From a virus (taxonomy: Duplodnaviria; Heunggongvirae; Uroviricota; Caudoviricetes): 55,118 nt of DNA. Under the pieces are notes generated by a model, which saw only the letters and a list, made by a program, of their open reading frames with translations, was not told where the DNA came from and did not search any database. Position 1 is the stretch's first letter. Every line of letters begins with the position of its first letter. Both the position numbers and the translations under genes were made by a program. The DNA is taken from IMG/VR virus record IMGVR_UViG_2563366941_000007, positions 1-55,118 of that record; one strand, 5' to 3'. Positions 16,904 through 54,663 of this stretch are shown piece after piece.

Positions 16904-17694
16904 TTACGCCAGTTGAACGGACACGAACTCATCAGGATCAGCCAGCAGCATCAGCGGTGCTGACTGAATCATGGTGAACTCTCGCGCCGGATCGCCGGAT
17001 GTCTTCCAGTTTTTCGGATAACGGGGAGACGCATTAATACCCTCACTCAATGCATCCGCATCCTGAATACAGCCATAGGTGCGCAGACCGCGTGCATGAG
17101 TGTTACCCAGCACCATCGTGTTGTCCGGCAGGAAGTTCTTTTTGACGCCGTTTTCCACGTACTGTCCGGAATACACGACGATGGCCACATCTCCATACAT
17201 TCCCTTATAAGACACCGCTTTGCCCAGGTCTTTTACCGCTGTCTCCAGTTCGGAATGAGAGCCGCGACGGGTATCCAGCTTCTCCCTGACGGCTTTGAAG
17301 GAACGGAACAGCGCCCAGCCTTTCGGATCAAACACGATGATATTCACCACGCCGCTGGCGTTCAGCGCGTAGGCTTCGATATCGTCGGTCGGATCATACG
17401 TGGACTTGTCACGCTTGCTCCACTCCGTGCCGCCGGACTGCGTGATGTTGTTGGCCGCACTGCGGCCCATATCCACCTCAACCGGATCGAAGGCTTCACC
17501 AGTCATGGTGTATTTGCCCTTGAGCACGGCAGAAACGGCCTGCATCTCTTCGACCTGAGCAATGGCCAGCTCTTCGTCACGCATGTTCTGCATGATGATG
17601 CGACGGCGGCGGTAAGCCGGGTCCGCCAGATTCTGCGGATCTTCATCCGGCAGGCGACGCAGGGTCATCTGCGGATTCACCTCATGCTTGGGTT
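16904..17694 (-). pseudogene. E: Major capsid protein E, C-terminal fragment (codons from ...KPKHEVNPQMTLRRL to the stop)
   Basis: Translation matches about 260 C-terminal residues of lambda gpE; the N-terminal 91 codons lie 11.6 kb away at 29261..29536. Confidence 0.9.
17685..17694. repeat. 10-bp direct-repeat core TGCTTGGGTT, left copy (element/E junction)
   Basis: Identical 10-mer at 29292..29301; both sit exactly where E homology breaks. Confidence 0.8.
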
Positions 17695-20428: not shown

Positions 20429-21469
20429 TTAGCCAATGCGAACGGTAACAAAACGATTGATGCGGGCCGGTATTGGCTGTGGTGCTGAATGTGTCTGCAC
20501 ATATTCAATAGCCGGATCACCAGGCACAATATAGTTTTTCGGTGCAAGTTCGGCTTTAGTCAGCCCCATTCGGATTAGCTCCGGATCCTGAATACCGCCA
20601 TAGGCGACAATCCCCTGAAGAGCCGTATTGCCAAGCACCATCAAATCAGGATCAAGGAAATGTTTTTCTGTTCCGTCCTCGTCGGTATAACGCCCGCTGT
20701 AAACAACAATCGCAACATCGCCCATATACCCTTTAAAACTCACCGAATCACCAAGGTCTTTAAGGGCCGTTTCCAGTTCGGAATTAGAACCACGACGGGT
20801 ATCCAAAGCCTCTTTTATCGCTCTGAATGAACGGTATTTCTTCCATACATTACCACCCATAATGATGATATTAGTGACGCCCTCACTAAATTCTGCGTAG
20901 CTCTCAATATCATCATTTGGATCAAAAGTTTCTTTATCCTTACCTGACCACTCAGTACCGCCAGACTGAGTGATGATATTTTGTGGTTTTATATTCCAGT
21001 CCAGCTCATAACGTTCAATACCATCGCCCTCAATGATATTTTTCCCCGTTGTGATTGCCTGAACAGCAAGCCATTCAATACGTGCACGAATAGCTTTAGC
21101 CTGATTTACAATCGCCTGTTTAACTTTAATATTACGCGCCCCAAAAGCATTGTATTGCTCAGGTGACACACCAACAGGGCGCACAGCTAACTTATTTGGA
21201 TCAATGCTGCTTTTCGGCTTCATATAACCTGGACGAATTGTTTTTGATTCGTATCCCTCATCTCGTGAAACTTTACTGCCCACCATAGGAGAGCAAAACG
21301 CCGCGATCGGGATATTTGGATCGTCGATCGTATCAAGAATAATGTCTCTCGATTCAAACATTACCGAGCGAGTGAAAAACAAACTGGTAAACAACGCATT
21401 TAATTTTTTTTGTACATCTACAGCATTAACCACCTGTACAAGCTGAGTAGGCGAATATAAATCAACCAT
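20429..21469 (-). CDS. Major capsid protein, divergent homolog of lambda gpE
   Basis: Shares PGYMKPK, QSGGTEWS, DTRRGSNSELETALKDLG, GDVAIVVYSG, MVLGNT blocks with gpE; start at 21469 is preceded by AAGAGGA. Confidence 0.8.
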   Translation of the reverse strand: MVDLYSPTQLVQVVNAVDVQKKLNALFTSLFFTRSVMFESRDIILDTIDDPNIPIAAFCSPMVGSKVSRDEGYESKTIRPGYMKPKSSIDPNKLAVRPVGVSPEQYNAFGARNIKVKQAIVNQAKAIRARIEWLAVQAITTGKNIIEGDGIERYELDWNIKPQNIITQSGGTEWSGKDKETFDPNDDIESYAEFSEGVTNIIIMGGNVWKKYRSFRAIKEALDTRRGSNSELETALKDLGDSVSFKGYMGDVAIVVYSGRYTDEDGTEKHFLDPDLMVLGNTALQGIVAYGGIQDPELIRMGLTKAELAPKNYIVPGDPAIEYVQTHSAPQPIPARINRFVTVRIG

Positions 21470-21751
21470 ACGCATCCTCTTTGCATTCATTAAAAATAAT
21501 TGTGGATATATGCTATCACCGATATTTGTCATGCGAACACATGCAACCGAGTGCAATGTTGTATAAAGTTTTGGGGTGACAACTTCAGTGCGGACAATTA
21601 GTGTTAATATCTTCACTCCCTTTGGTCGGGATTTATGTAGCATGCCGGAAAATTTATTTTTTCCGGCCTTTTTTTATTGGCAATATTTAAAACGGGGGTG
21701 ATGCTGCCAACTTACTGATTCAGTGTATGATGGTGTTTTTGAGGTGCTCCA

Positions 21752-29260: not shown

Positions 29261-29536
29261 CTACACGAAAGCCTCAGAAAGCCATGCTAAGTGCTTGGGT
29301 TTGACATATCCCGGCGTAAATTCAGAGGTGGAGCCGCCACGGGAGCGGATAACCTCACCGGAAACAATCGGCGAAACGTACAGCGCCATGTTTACCAGTC
29401 CCGGAATTTGTGAGAGATAGACTTTCTCCGTAGTGAAGGGATAGCTCTCACGGAAAAAGAGACGCAGAAACAGCGGATCAAACTTAAATTTCTGCTCATT
29501 TGCCGCCAGCAGTTGGGCGGTTGTGTACATCGACAT
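29261..29536 (-). pseudogene. E: Major capsid protein E, N-terminal fragment (91 codons) fused to 9 element-derived codons
   Basis: MSMYTTAQLLAANEQKFKFDPLFLRLFFRESYPFTTEKVYLSQIPGLVNMALYVSPIVSGEVIRSRGGSTSEFTPGYVKPKH then LAWLSEAFV-stop. Confidence 0.9.
29292..29301. repeat. 10-bp direct-repeat core TGCTTGGGTT, right copy (element/E junction)
   Basis: Identical to 17685..17694. Confidence 0.8.
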
Positions 29537-49177: not shown

Positions 49178-49624
49178 TTATCGTTTTTTCCCTGTTCGTT
49201 GACAGATAACAGGTTTTCTGTCTGTCAGTGCCAGAATCTGGCTTACCGGTATTTGCGTTTCATTCCATTAAAAAATCAGAACGCCGTGCGGCCTCAACAC
49301 CCGAAAGGCTTCTTTAAATCTCTGTCGCGAATCATCACGCCAGGCATCTTTATTCAGCCGTCCATATTTCTTTCCCATCCAGGCGTTATCACCAACACTC
49401 TCAAGATGCGGAGGGTCTAATACAACCATCGAAAAAGATGCGTCTGCAAATGATAATGCACGAAAATCTGCGATAATGTCAGGGCTGATAATCAAGCGTC
49501 TCCCATTGCGTAATGTGTATCCTTCTTTTCTGATATCGCTGAATATCGCCCGTTCGTCAGACTTATCGAACCAGAACATGCGGCTGCCACAGCACATATC
49601 AAGAATGGTTGCCGGTGCACTCAC
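49178..49624 (-). pseudogene. SAM-dependent DNA methyltransferase (DPPH motif) interrupted by an in-frame TAA
   Basis: MSAPATILDMCCGSRMFWFD...VVLDPPHLE...; the frame continues after TAA at 49268..49270 for 29 more codons. Confidence 0.5.
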
Positions 49625-50043
49625 TGCGCCACGTCCTGAAAATTACCCTGATAGAAAGCCAGTATGCGCTGCATAACTTCGCTCTTCCGGCACTCGCGAC
49701 AGATTATGTTTAGGCGACTGTCGTAGCGACGTATTTCTCCGTCAGGTGATGACCAGATAAGGTCCGGATCAACCACAGCAGGTTTCTTCACCTTTGCCCT
49801 CGAGAGTTTTTTGCGGGCGTTTTGCCAGTCCTTACGCGCCTGTTCAGAGGGGAATAACCCGTAGCCGGAGTTGTATACATCGCCACTGGCTACCAGCTCT
49901 CTGGCAAGAACGCTCATCAGATATCTAGTCGCACCTGTTTTAGCTTCCAGTTGCCGTAACGTCTCACGGCCGCTCTGGCGCACGAGTTCCACCACCTGCC
50001 ATTTAATTTTTTCCCGCTCTTCTTGTGTAAAAACTTTTGCCAC
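49621..50043 (-). CDS. Hypothetical phage protein (140 aa)
   Basis: ORF MAKVFTQEEREKIKWQVVELVRQSGRETLRQLEAKTGATRYLMSVLAREL... (possible winged-HTH-like N-terminus). Confidence 0.45.
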   Translation of the reverse strand: MAKVFTQEEREKIKWQVVELVRQSGRETLRQLEAKTGATRYLMSVLARELVASGDVYNSGYGLFPSEQARKDWQNARKKLSRAKVKKPAVVDPDLIWSSPDGEIRRYDSRLNIICRECRKSEVMQRILAFYQGNFQDVAQ

Positions 50044-50083
50044 AAGTCCCCCTTAAAATTACCTCATGACCTGAAATCAACAC

Positions 50084-50572
50084 TTATCCTCTGAAACCAG
50101 GCGGAATTTCTGTATCCGGTTCAGAAATATGATTAACACAACGCTGTACAGGTGAACGTCCCAGGCGGATGACCAGTTCGTCCCATTTTTCGCGGAGCTT
50201 TGACGGGCTCATGATGTTTTTTACCCAGAATGGATCTCGCTGAACCCGACCAAACATTTCGCAAATTTGTCTGTGGCTTCTGCCATCCAGCATCCGCATT
50301 GTGCGCACGTCATTGGCCCAGGCAGTCCAGTTAGGCTCTTTTGGTCGCATGATCTCGCCATCATCACTGGCTGCCTGTTCGTAGAGACCCACGATCCGCC
50401 CCCAGATCCACTGCGCACACGCCAAATCCTCCCTGCTACCCCACTGGCGTTTTTTCGCACTAAACACAACCGCGTCGGAGTTCCGGGTTAAAAAATCCTG
50501 TTCAGTCGTCTGCGGGTCCGGTTGCGAAGCTTCCGGACGAAAAGTGTTTTTATTCTCTGTAGTAATCTCTGT
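50084..50572 (-). pseudogene. Replication-initiator (O-like / replisome organizer) gene, C-terminal fragment distal to IS629
   Basis: The reading frame is open from the IS junction (TEITTENKNTFRPEAS...) into the ORF 50084..50467. Confidence 0.5.
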
Positions 50573-50614
50573 TGAACCGCCCCGGGTTTCCTGGAGAGTG
50601 TTTTATCTGTGAAC

Positions 50615-51505
50615 TCAGGCTGCCAGATCATCGTTTCCGATGGAAGCATAATAAGCTTTTTCTGCTTCTGCCGGAGGAGTATGGCCCAGCCTTTCCAGCA
50701 ATCGTCGATTGTTATACCAGTCCACCCACGTGAGTGTGGCCAGTTCCACTTCTGCACGGTTTTTCCAGCTCTTACGGTGTATTACCTCCGCTTTGTAAAG
50801 ACCATTGATGCTCTCCGCCATCGCGTTGTCATACGAGTCGCCTGTACTTCCTGTTGATGCCAGTAATCCGGCTTCCTTAAGCCGCTGTGTGTAGGCCAGC
50901 GATACATACTGAGAACCTTTATCACTGTGATGGACCGTGCCGGACGGTCGACGGGCCCATAACGCCTGCTCCAGTGCATCCAGCACGAATGTCGTTTCCA
51001 TGGACGATGAGACCCGCCACCCCACGATGTATCCGGCAAACACATCAATGATGAACGCCACATAGACGAAGCCCCGCCATGTGCTGACGTAAGTAAAATC
51101 AGCCACCCACAGCTGGTCAGGTCGTTCTGCCACGAACTGACGGTTTACGCGGTCGCCTGCGGCAACGGCTTTCCGGCTGATGGTCGTACGGACCTTTTTA
51201 CCCCGGAGAACACCGGCAAGTCCCATAACCGCCATGAGACGTGCCACAGTGCATCTGGCCACTCTGATACCTTCCCGTAACAACTGACGCCAGACTTTAC
51301 GCACACCGTATACCTTGTGATTTTCATCGTATACGCGCTGTATCTCTTTCTTCAGCCAGTCATCGCGCTGCGCACGGGCACTGCGTTTATCCGGATGATG
51401 TCGCTGTTGCTGACAGTGGTAATACGTTGACGGGGCAATATGCAGTTCGCTGCATAGCGGTCCGACCCCGTACTGCTCACGCAGCTTATCCAGCAGTGGC
51501 ATCAT
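50615..51505 (-). CDS. IS3-family transposase OrfB (expressed as OrfAB via -1 frameshift)
   Basis: DDE integrase-core sequence ...[34 protein letters not shown]...HHSDKGSQY... Confidence 0.85.
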
Positions 51506-51828
51506 TTTTTCCAGAGGCGGTCGAACTCCGCCTTCGCAAAATAAGCGGAAGCCTGGCGAAGGATATCGTTACTGCGGCGCAGTTCACGATTTTCACGTTC
51601 CAGCTCTTTCAGACGCTGACGTTCAGCGGTGGTGAGTCCTCCATCACCGCCCCCGGTATCCCGCTCATGCTGGCGAACCCAGACACGCAGAGTCTCCGGC
51701 GTACAGCCAATCTTTGGAGCAATGGAACAAATTGTCGCCCATTGTGAGTCATATTCGCTCTGACTTTCCAGAACCATACGGACTGCCCGTTGACGGACTT
51801 CGGGGGAAAAACGAGTATTTTTAGTCAT
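51502..51828 (-). CDS. IS3-family transposase OrfA
   Basis: 108-aa [55 protein letters not shown]... with leucine-zipper-like C-terminus. Confidence 0.85.
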
Positions 51829-51882
51829 CCTGTTTACCTCTTTCTCAGGAAGTTTAGTCTCCAGGATTCCCGGGGCGGTTCA

Positions 51883-52417
51883 CAGTTGTATTCTCTGTAA
51901 GATCATCAGGCCATTTTGACCCGATGACATTGGGTCGTTTTGAACCAATGGAGCGTTTCATTTTGACCTCTTCCATCGTGTCATTTTGACCTGATGGAGC
52001 GGCGCATTTTGAACCGATGGATTCGCTCAATTTGCCACCATCTAAAAGCTCGCTCCCATAGTTGATCGTGTAGAAATTGGTCATATCGCGCTTTGATTTA
52101 TTGAGCTTTTCACAACGCAAAAGCCCCAGCGTTTTCAGACTTGCAAACGCGCGCTTTAACGTTGACTCTGACCAGAATGGGAACTGTTCCAGCCATTGTT
52201 CCGTTGTGTTATAAATCCAGCGAACACCATCACATTCCATGCCGGAGTTGGTATCTCTCAACCAGTAGTGCAGTTGTTGCAAAACAATGGCTTCGTTTAA
52301 GCCAATTTTCATTGCCAGTTGCGTGTTTATAACCAGTGGGCGTTCAGCAAAAAGAAGGCTCATAATTCCATCCAGCTTTTTGTTGGTATTGCTGTCGATA
52401 CGCAAGTTTGAAAGCAA
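51883..52417 (-). pseudogene. Replication-initiator (O-like / replisome organizer) gene, N-terminal fragment with intragenic iterons, truncated by IS629
   Basis: N-terminal DnaD/replisome-organizer-like sequence (...LVINTQLAMKIGLNEAIVLQQLHYWL...GVRWIYNTTEQWLEQFPFWSESTLKRAF...); the last 9 codons of the ORF come from the IS end. Confidence 0.55.
51911..52010. repeat. Five to six iterons CATTTTGA(C/A)C-YGATGGA inside the O-like gene (prophage ori-like)
   Basis: Repeats read directly; encode the repeated peptide motif IGSK; analogous to the lambda ori lying within O. Confidence 0.6.
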
Positions 52418-52865
52418 TTGCTTTTTCTATAAGTTCGTCAGTTTCACGATCCACTACGGCAGGATCAGCAAAAAGCAGTCCGGACTCCACCACATCGCCA
52501 TATTCTTTGTTTAACCCGGCGATCATGCACGTGATGCTTTTTCCGTCAGTAATTTCACGATACAACCTGAAATCATTAATCCGGATAGCCTCCATAATTG
52601 CAGGCACTAGCGCCGTGAACTTTTCACGCTTATCCCTGGTGTCGATAGCCTTCCAGCGTTCAAATATCTTCACTCGATTAACGCCAAGCGCTCGCTGATC
52701 AATCGCGCCACCTTCATATGTGACACGCTGAACATCGATGTTCGGGCGCTCTTTCAAAGCCCAGAATGCTTCAGTGATTAATATCGTCGCCTGCTCCTGT
52801 GTCATTCCTGGTCGACATATCCAGGCATCCAGAGCCTCACGAGCCTGTTCAGGAGTGATTTTCAT
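52344..52865 (-). CDS. Hypothetical early-region protein (173 aa) downstream of the cro-like gene (YdaT/CII-position)
   Basis: ORF MKITPEQAREALDAWICRPGMTQEQATILITEAFWALKERPNIDVQRV...; family not confidently recognised. Confidence 0.45.
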   Translation of the reverse strand: MKITPEQAREALDAWICRPGMTQEQATILITEAFWALKERPNIDVQRVTYEGGAIDQRALGVNRVKIFERWKAIDTRDKREKFTALVPAIMEAIRINDFRLYREITDGKSITCMIAGLNKEYGDVVESGLLFADPAVVDRETDELIEKAIAFKLAYRQQYQQKAGWNYEPSFC

Positions 52866-53079
52866 TGTTCAACCGCCCCGCCCGCTTCGTCTTACGATAT
52901 TCATCATAAACTTTGGGATCATACTGAAGCTCCCCGCCAGATGCCTCCTGTAGACGCATCGCGCGACCTTCGGGAACTAAATCCCCTTTCCAGCTATAAA
53001 GCGAAGCCAAACGAATACCTGCTGCTTGTGCAAGTTTTGTTTTTGAACCGAAATACAAAAGAGCGTCAGTTTTAAGCAT
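52849..53079 (-). CDS. dicC: Cro-like HTH repressor DicC
   Basis: 76-aa MLKTDALLYFGSKTKLAQAAGIRLASLYSWKGDLVPEGRAMRLQEASGGELQYDP... Confidence 0.9.
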   Translation of the reverse strand: MLKTDALLYFGSKTKLAQAAGIRLASLYSWKGDLVPEGRAMRLQEASGGELQYDPKVYDEYRKTKRAGRLNNENHS

Positions 53080-53162
53080 TTAAAACACCTTTATTGTTAG
53101 TCATAACTAACAAGATAGATGTTAACAAAAACATAGTCAATACGATTTAGCATTAGCTAACT

Positions 53163-53570
53163 ATGGAAACAAAAAATTTAACTATCGGCGAACGCATCAG
53201 GTATCGTCGGAAAAACCTCAAACACACCCAAAGGTCTCTTGCTAAAGCCCTGAAAATCTCCCATGTGTCTGTATCACAATGGGAACGGGGTGATAGTGAA
53301 CCTACAGGGAAGAACCTTTTTGCCCTCAGCAAAGTATTGCAATGCTCACCAACATGGATTCTATTTGGCGATGAAGACAAGCAACCAACACCACCTGTTG
53401 AGAAGCCAGTTGCCTTATCCCCCAAAGAACTAGAGCTCCTTGAGCTGTTTAATGCACTGCCAGAATCAGAACAGGATACCCAGCTCGCCGAAATGCGAGC
53501 TCGAGTAAAAAACTTCAATAAACTCTTTGAAGAATTACTAAAAGCCCGTCAGCGGACAAATAAAAGATAA
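53163..53570 (+). CDS. dicA: CI-like HTH repressor DicA
   Basis: 135-aa METKNLTIGERIRYRRKNLKHTQRSLAKALKISHVSVSQWERGDSEPTGKNLFALSKVLQ... Confidence 0.95.
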   Translation: METKNLTIGERIRYRRKNLKHTQRSLAKALKISHVSVSQWERGDSEPTGKNLFALSKVLQCSPTWILFGDEDKQPTPPVEKPVALSPKELELLELFNALPESEQDTQLAEMRARVKNFNKLFEELLKARQRTNKR

Positions 53571-54610: not shown

Positions 54611-54663
54611 TTTCTGGTGACGTTTGGCGGTATCAGTTTTACTCCGTGATTGCTCTGCCGCCC
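54611..54663 (+). ncRNA. dicF: DicF small regulatory RNA (ftsZ-targeting sRNA), followed by a T-run
   Basis: TTTCTGGTGACGTTTGGCGGTATCAGTTTTACTCCGTGATTGCTCTGCCGCCC matches recalled DicF with one mismatch; terminator T-run at 54664..54668. Confidence 0.85.

Follow-up and report, generated by a model that had tools for sequence, protein, structure and literature searches.

The initiator gene of phage lambda carries its own origin of replication. In ori-lambda, four palindromic iterons of 18-19 bp, which lie 20-24 bp apart and contain the core TCAAAAYGA, occupy the linker-coding middle of the O gene and are followed by an AT-rich block, and intragenic iterons with an AT-rich tract are the general layout of lambdoid origins (PMC7466680). 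In lambda the O gene lies directly after cII in the rightward operon and is itself followed by P. A lone O homologue is found in 34 of 314 lambdoid phages, whose replication "is not yet understood" (2025, PMC12315714); for this O-only class, which includes phage LLS and to which the mEp460-type immunity and replication regions belong, the same paper gives no origin or mechanism and says that none of these phages has been studied. The insertion sequence (IS) IS629 is the commonest IS of O157 genomes, with 62% of its copies in prophages; its isoforms, IS1203 among them, diverge by 4-5%, and its target duplication is 3-4 bp long, matching repeats being present at just 21 of 47 sites (PMC3271280). 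Here we analyzed a stretch of 55,118 nucleotides of tailed-phage DNA (IMG/VR record IMGVR_UViG_2563366941_000007, positions 1 to 55,118; hereafter the window), which holds a Qin-type lambdoid (lambda-like) Escherichia coli prophage and whose right end is the immunity and replication region. An IS629/IS1203-type element has split an O-like gene of this region in two, and we argue that it very probably broke a lambda-O-like initiator together with the origin built into its gene.

A single insertion splits one gene

At the locus of the insertion, four relatives carry an uninterrupted gene of 966 bp that encodes a protein of 321 amino acids. One of them, the prophage of strain USDA-ARS-USMARC-51408 (locus L005), is the same prophage at 99.8% identity, with its IS-free O gene at 20630-21595; the absence of 1.3 kb is the sole difference over the stretch. 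When positions 52363-51883 of the window were joined to 50572-50084, the product was 970 bp long, differing in length from the intact genes solely by four extra bases at the junction, and removal of the element together with these 4 bp restored the gene with only 1-2 substitutions relative to L005. The open reading frames (ORFs) that flank the element are the halves of one 321-codon gene split by a simple insertion at codon 160/161, with the element in the same orientation as the gene (Table 1).

The native start of the gene is the ATG at 52363, which overlaps the ydaT-like gene upstream by 20 nt as it does in annotated homologues, and not the TTG at 52417 given in a mechanical list of ORFs. 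The N-terminal ORF extends 29 nt into the element and stops at 51854-51856, so that its product consists of 160 native residues and nine more encoded by the element (VNRPGNPGD). On the other side, the 3' frame is open from the boundary of the element at 50572 to the stop at 50084 and lacks the native start. A model that had seen only the letters and their ORFs (the sequence-only reading) had already proposed that an IS629-like element of the IS3 family with imperfect terminal repeats lies at 50573..51882 inside one replication-initiator gene, that the N-terminal fragment ends within the element, and that the frame downstream stays open into ORF 50084..50467. These proposals all held: the boundaries lie where that reading had put them, the intact homologues are contiguous across the site, and the downstream frame supplies residues 161-321. 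In annotation, ORFs 50084-50467 and 51854-52417 should be treated as one pseudogene.

On transposing, the element duplicated 4 bp; its point of entry is in the AT-rich block, some 20 bp beyond the last iteron of the gene. The empty site in L005 reads ...AATCTCTGT^TGTATTC, while in the window ...CTCTGT precedes the element and CAGTTGTATTC follows it; the copy of the duplication on the left (CTGT) matches the empty site and that on the right (CAGT) has one mismatch. Here the sequence-only reading needs correction, as it had seen no target duplication immediately adjacent to the element. Faulty repair, a subsequent mutation or an error in sequencing could account for the mismatch; at other loci, three related copies have perfect duplications of 3 or 4 bp. 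Two other placements of the ends were tried and rejected: a 3-bp duplication (TGT) requires an extra base plus a mismatch, and ends shifted to TGTGAACC...GGTT, with a perfect CAAC, disagree with the related copies, all of which end TGAACC...GGTTCA. A near-repeat, TATTCTCTGTA, had also been noticed on both flanks, and it is present there as native gene sequence. It comes from three tandem 12-nt units in the gene (ACAGAGAATACA, ACAGAGATTACT and ACAGAGAATAAA), the element lying between the first and the second.

The element itself appears intact. It begins TGAACCGCCCCGGG and its other end is the reverse complement of TGAACCGCCCCGGG, with terminal inverted repeats that match at 14/14 positions and then at about 25 of the first 27. 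The overlap of orfA and orfB falls at a run of six A residues, next to a frameshift-stimulating pseudoknot of the ALIL type, and orfB is predicted to be made as an OrfAB fusion through a -1 frameshift; homologous copies carry the annotation "programmed frameshift" from the Prokaryotic Genome Annotation Pipeline (PGAP). Copies in many E. coli chromosomes and plasmids share 99.9% identity with the element, two in related prophages share 98%, and one that carries the PGAP label IS1203 shares 96.1%. By these comparisons it belongs within the IS629/IS1203 group and seems to be an isoform other than the IS1203-labelled copy. In its length of 1310 bp, its TG...CA ends, its -1 frameshifted orfA/orfB, a duplication of 3-4 bp and the preference for prophage DNA, it resembles the IS629/IS1203 insertions in prophages of enterohaemorrhagic and other E. 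coli, from which it differs in the one mismatch of its duplication and in its exact junction, which is new.

The insertion looks recent, since other copies of the element match it at 99.9% identity and both halves of the gene are free of further damage, no stop or frameshift having been gained in either. None of 5,426 complete E. coli genomes contains its exact left junction, and a 30-mer across this junction is absent from 185,579 representative genomes (one per GTDB species). As an allele the insertion is new and rare; as a kind of event it is ordinary prophage decay, and its significance taken by itself is very small, being that of one more IS629-type hit in a prophage.

Table 1 Features of the insertion locus, the putative origin and their surroundings in the window.
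Feature	Position	Strand	Remarks
IS3-family element, IS629/IS1203 group, apparently intact	50573..51882	-	1310 bp; right inverted repeat (IRR) at the 50573 end, left inverted repeat (IRL) at the 51882 end
IS orfA	51502..51828	-	108 aa; HTH_Tnp_1 (Pfam 7e-13); ends at A6 slippery run 51505-51510
IS orfB	50615..51505	-	296 aa; rve DDE integrase core (Pfam 8e-28), HTH_21, rve_3
ALIL frameshift-stimulating pseudoknot	51431..51547	-	Rfam RF01497, 120.2 bits, E 1.2e-31
Target-site duplication, left copy CTGT	50569..50572	.	Matches the empty site
Target-site duplication, right copy CAGT	51883..51886	.	One mismatch; the 4 extra bases relative to the empty site
O-like initiator gene (predicted), split in two by the IS	Between the YdaT-family/cII-like and DUF977 genes	-	
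O-like gene, 5' fragment	51883..52363	-	Native codons 1-160; predicted winged-helix N-terminal domain and linker
O-like gene, 3' fragment	50084..50572	-	Codons 161-321 and stop; predicted lambda-O-like C-terminal domain
Iteron array, five 23-bp units	51904..52019	.	51997-52019, 51974-51996, 51951-51973, 51928-51950, 51904-51926
Possible degenerate sixth iteron	52020..52042	.	In phase; 14/23 to consensus
AT-rich stretch, iteron-proximal part	51883..51903	.	Gene positions 461-481; 70% A+T vs 52% for the gene
AT-rich stretch, distal part	50540..50572	.	Now 1.3 kb from the iterons
DnaT-like tail, last 21 codons	50087..50149	-	VQRCVNHISEPDTEIPPGFRG; also in loci L005, L009, L010, L014-L019
DUF977/Ren-like (LygF) gene	49621-50043	-	Downstream neighbour of O
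SAM methyltransferase	49268-49624	-	
YdaT-family/cII-like gene	52344-52865	-	Upstream neighbour; 20-nt overlap with the O start
dicC/Cro-like gene	52849-53079	-	
dicA-like repressor	53163-53570	+	
DicF antisense RNA	54612-54663	+	Rfam, 71 bits
11.6-kb element inside the major capsid gene	17699-29291		Extra relative to PhiR42_1

The split gene is predicted to encode a lambda-O-like initiator

Profile and homology searches identify the product of the split gene as a probable lambda-O-like initiator. Its best full-length profile is PHROG 391, "replication initiation O-like" (residues 17-321, 2.5e-91), and residues 147-294 align with residues 135-270 of lambda O at 34% identity over 148 aa (BLASTP, E 1e-26), which covers the C-terminal domain. 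Searches with tblastn gave matches to many lambda-like and Stx phages, the allele WP_000054512.1 is labelled "phage replication protein O" by PGAP, and the gene lies directly after a cII-like gene, as lambda O does. The O-like identity given in the sequence-only reading is in line with all of this, while its label "replisome-organizer-type" has no counterpart, as no such Pfam domain was found. The two proteins differ at their ends: lambda O has an N-terminal PF04492 domain and is without a DnaT-like tail, whereas the O of the window has a non-PF04492 N-terminus and a DnaT-like tail. The N-terminal ~130-170 residues of the protein share ~45% identity with the N-terminal parts of staphylococcal phage proteins that carry a DnaD-like annotation, and PHROG 6493, "DnaD-like helicase loader", matches at 2.7e-36. 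Searches of both fragments and the intact protein against Pfam and NCBIfam brought up the DnaT tail and otherwise only noise below threshold (Slx4, YLR146W-A); a sequence search of the PDB gave only the DnaT tail and a chance match to YteR.

An AlphaFold2 model of the intact protein, built from 16 homologues, shows a helix/strand domain at residues 11-108 (predicted local distance difference test, pLDDT, 67-86), a disordered segment at 109-175, a helical domain at ~180-297 and a disordered tail. A Foldseek search of the PDB with this model placed the N-terminal domains of staphylococcal plasmid RepA proteins first (4pql, 5kbj, 4pt7), followed by many winged-helix regulators, which suggests that the N-terminal domain is a winged-helix DNA-binding domain of uncertain family. 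The RepA_N-type initiators, its best fold match, are winged-helix proteins that bind iterons; the match is weak (E 0.02-0.2, 14-18% identity, from a modest model), and the C-terminal domain and the host range differ. RepA_N-type staphylococcal plasmids have their iterons within the rep gene.

A putative origin lies within the gene

A repeat search found five 23-bp units in the middle of the gene, starting at 51904, 51928, 51951, 51974 and 51997, with a spacing of 24/23/23/23 that corresponds to about two helical turns. Their consensus in the sense of the gene is CATCGGGTCAAAATGACCCGATG, which is self-complementary at 20/23 positions. All four exact matches to CATTTTGAMC in the window fall on one strand within the 103-bp stretch of iterons and, with one mismatch, so do five of 13; the window-wide count of 13 is unremarkable against the 10.7 expected, and it is the clustering and regular phasing that are unusual. 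The sequence-only reading had counted five to six intragenic iterons placed as in lambda O. Five of these stand, in the layout of ori-lambda, and the sixth is at most a degenerate unit. Directly after the last iteron comes an AT-rich block of ~50 bp (up to 70% A+T) that holds the three 12-nt repeats, and the element entered this block at gene position ~477-481, that is, 18-22 bp beyond the last iteron.

The arrangement is similar to ori-lambda in each of the respects given above: a mid-gene, linker-coding position, palindromic units at comparable distances, and an AT-rich block next to them. The array occupies offsets 344-459 of the 966-bp gene, and the lambda iterons lie at 349-433 of 900 with a spacing of 20/24/23; the core TCAAAAYGA is common to both. 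The number and the length of the units differ, lambda having four of 18-19 bp and the window five of 23 bp. Homologues from Salmonella and from a different type of E. coli phage, with 68-70% protein identity, keep most of the iteron cores at the same offsets (352, 375, 421 and 445 in Salmonella; 352, 421 and 445 in E. coli), the remaining units being off by 1-2 bases, and the AT-rich block is nearly unchanged in both. The linker that AlphaFold2 predicts to be disordered coincides with the protein segment for which the array and the AT-rich block code. Natural alleles of 290 aa (P0016 and relatives) lack exactly 31 codons (93 nt, four periods) and retain one hybrid iteron. Such a loss looks like the product of recombination between direct repeats; it preserves the reading frame only because the length of four periods happens to be divisible by three. 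From this architecture we infer that the iteron array and the AT-rich block constitute an origin laid out like ori-lambda, which would provide a concrete origin model (five 23-bp palindromic iterons and an AT-rich block of 12-mers) for an O family outside Pfam and NCBIfam.

Proposed consequence of the insertion and alternative explanations

In the intact protein, a winged-helix domain at the N-terminus would be connected through a disordered linker to a lambda-O-like C-terminal domain, and the DNA coding for the linker would be the origin. By analogy with ori-lambda, dimers of O would bind the iterons, the AT-rich block would melt next, and the C-terminal part of O would bring in the host helicase. 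After the insertion, the truncated initiator would keep its DNA-binding domain and linker and lose the C-terminal domain; the C-terminal coding fragment would be orphaned with its start gone, and 1.3 kb would now lie between the iterons and most of the DNA that is presumed to unwind. Because the element lies in the AT-rich stretch of the gene, one event would have broken both the initiator and the origin. The prophage should then be unable to start its own replication, in cis as well as in trans, and a Qin-type prophage would be locked in the chromosome by the loss of initiator and origin at a single stroke. N-terminal fragments of lambda O still bind ori, and by the same analogy one may speculate that the 169-aa product could still occupy the iterons.

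Several points weigh against this account. The protein belongs to no Pfam or NCBIfam family, and its N-terminal domain gives no match to PF04492 (Phage_rep_O) even at E 10, a family that lambda O itself matches at 5.7e-36. With a mean pLDDT of 56.8 the structural model is weak, and no Foldseek E-value is as low as 0.01 (0.02-0.6). The origin is assigned from architecture and conservation, and no helicase-loader gene lies beside O to serve the final step of the mechanism. The mismatch between the two copies of the duplication (CTGT/CAGT) is unexpected in so young an insertion. Finally, the functional loss may be moot, as the 11.6-kb element also sits inside the major capsid gene.

The last point leads to the alternative that survives best, namely that the insertion had no consequence of its own and was a neutral hit in the decaying DNA of a prophage already unable to yield phage. 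We regard this as a serious possibility, if not a probable one. The major capsid gene is interrupted by an integrase-bearing element, and the IS-free relatives already have pseudogenes and an ISNCY remnant. However, an element with an integrase and 10-bp end repeats may excise and restore the capsid gene, and PhiR42_1 was deposited as a phage despite having the same transposase remnants.

A DnaT/DnaD-type primosome adaptor, instead of an initiator that binds the origin, is an improbable identity for the 321-aa protein. The names "Primosomal protein I" and "DnaD-like helicase loader" given by some depositors would fit such an adaptor, as would the match of the last 21 residues to DnaT and the likeness of the N-terminal 130 residues to the staphylococcal DnaD-like-annotated proteins and to PHROG 6493. 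The depositors' names are annotation transfers and not tests, though, and the DnaT match is limited to the tail, whereas the best full-length profile is O-like and the C-terminal domain has its homologue in lambda O. In addition, the gene is the sole replication gene of its module and is the one that bears the iteron array.

Even less credible is the explanation that the 23-bp repeats are a repeat of the protein linker (SIGSK-type) with no role as DNA, the origin lying elsewhere. Three of the five units do share a frame, in which they encode (S/V)IGSK, and the link of the repeats to replication is drawn from sequence comparison. But the units read in frames 2, 1, 0, 2 and 2, and two of them encode unrelated peptides; a period of 23-24 nt, which is not a multiple of three and puts the five units in all three frames, points to selection that acted on the DNA instead of on a repeated peptide. 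Every unit is palindromic, the position, spacing and core resemble ori-lambda, and the encoded segment is predicted to be disordered. That the flanking ORFs were brought together through a rearrangement caused by the IS, in which two copies of it gave rise to a deletion or inversion, can practically be dismissed: although the 4 bp on the two sides of the element are not identical, as is common at IS629 sites (matching duplications at only 21/47; PMC3271280), the window holds one copy of the element only, and the flanks are contiguous in the four intact relatives, with four extra bases, three of which match the target, as the sole difference.

Solo O genes and a DnaT-like tail

The lambda-O-like initiator would have to act without a partner encoded next to it. 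No gene of the P, DnaC-like or DnaB-like kind separates O from the DUF977/Ren-like gene in the window, in loci L001-L005, in PhiR42_1 or in mEp460_ev081, whereas in lambda the P gene follows O. This missing P-like partner did not figure in the sequence-only reading. The homologues of Salmonella, Citrobacter and E. coli that lie beside other immunity regions are also solo, and in loci L011-L013 unrelated small genes follow O. By gene content, the module (49621-52363 in the window) is thus like the O-only modules of phage LLS and others in having a single O homologue and no helicase or loader gene; it differs from them in that the O gene of the window is broken.

The last 21 residues of the protein (VQRCVNHISEPDTEIPPGFRG) are identical at 15/21 positions to the extreme C-terminus of E. 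coli DnaT (residues 159-179), and both end in IPPGFRG. The likeness to DnaT (primosomal protein I) is confined to this tail, the rest of the O protein being unlike DnaT. The DnaT family model NF002770, which has a cut-off of 201 bits, gave 16.3 bits over the last 20 residues only, far from a full-length DnaT. A recent capture of the 3' end of dnaT was considered and rejected; the DNA of the tail is just 61% identical (40/66), which indicates conservation instead. Lambda O lacks the tail, and 46 phage records have it at the C-terminal end of initiators whose bodies differ.

We inspected the neighbourhoods of the tail at nine loci from those 46 records, a small sample with no controls. Six of the nine have no adjacent loader gene (PhiR42_1, mEp460_ev081, Tritos, vB_EcoM-606R7, Klebsiella ST11-OXA245phi3.2 and Salmonella SPN1S), and at the other three (POCJ13, Gifsy-1 and SPN3UB) the gene directly downstream is a DnaC homologue; a P-type or DnaB-type neighbour was seen at none of the nine. 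The search for the tail also matched ydaU of the Rac prophage, and the next gene after it, ydaV, is one that we take to be DnaC-like. A tail-bearing initiator followed by a DnaC homologue is parallel to the dnaT-dnaC operon of the host. For DnaT residues 154-179, the one effect that Liu et al. describe is on the cooperativity of single-stranded DNA binding, and the way in which the preprimosome brings in DnaB/DnaC is stated to be unknown (2026 preprimosome paper). A search of full-text literature gave nothing relevant for the peptide IPPGFRG.

A tentative explanation, which we think more doubtful than not, is that the conserved tail (..VN.IS.PD..IP.GFRG) is a short docking motif through which both DnaT and the phage initiators engage a DnaC-type loader with DnaB, or PriA/PriB. 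If true, this would explain how O-only phages manage without a P gene and would point to the step at which the restart preprimosome recruits DnaB/DnaC. The pattern of neighbours is a lead and not a result; as such, the DnaT-like tail offers a testable lead on how O-only lambdoid phages load the host helicase, and this lead and the origin model are more useful than the finding of the insertion itself.

Prophage setting and other elements

The match to DicF beside the replication region confirms the Qin-type dicA-dicF-dicB arrangement. Leftward of this region, 25 kb with the lysis, terminase, portal and head genes are 99.5-99.8% identical to Qin-type prophages. The O module is intact in the phages PhiR42_1 and mEp460 (mEp460_ev081) and, given these intact copies, is presumably functional in real phages. 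A scan of 49200-53200 for promoter and terminator consensus sequences gave nothing above chance that is relevant to polarity.

In E. coli RM14721, a near-identical prophage (locus L003) carries a 98% identical copy of the IS in the gene that corresponds to the DUF977 gene of the window (1522-3257 in L003, equivalent to 49621-50043), and not in O. It is an independent hit on the same small region.

The 11.6-kb element inside the major capsid gene is bounded by a 10-bp direct repeat, TGCTTGGGTT, at 17685-17694 and 29292-29301. In strain HYM1, a related copy of this island has major capsid and decoration proteins of its own, besides genes for a tyrosine integrase, a primase-family protein, SSB, an Icd-like protein and a restriction endonuclease. 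The island has the look of a satellite-type integrative element, with the capsid gene of this type of prophage as its target. In the islands of other genomes, a TIR-domain protein takes the place of the restriction endonuclease.

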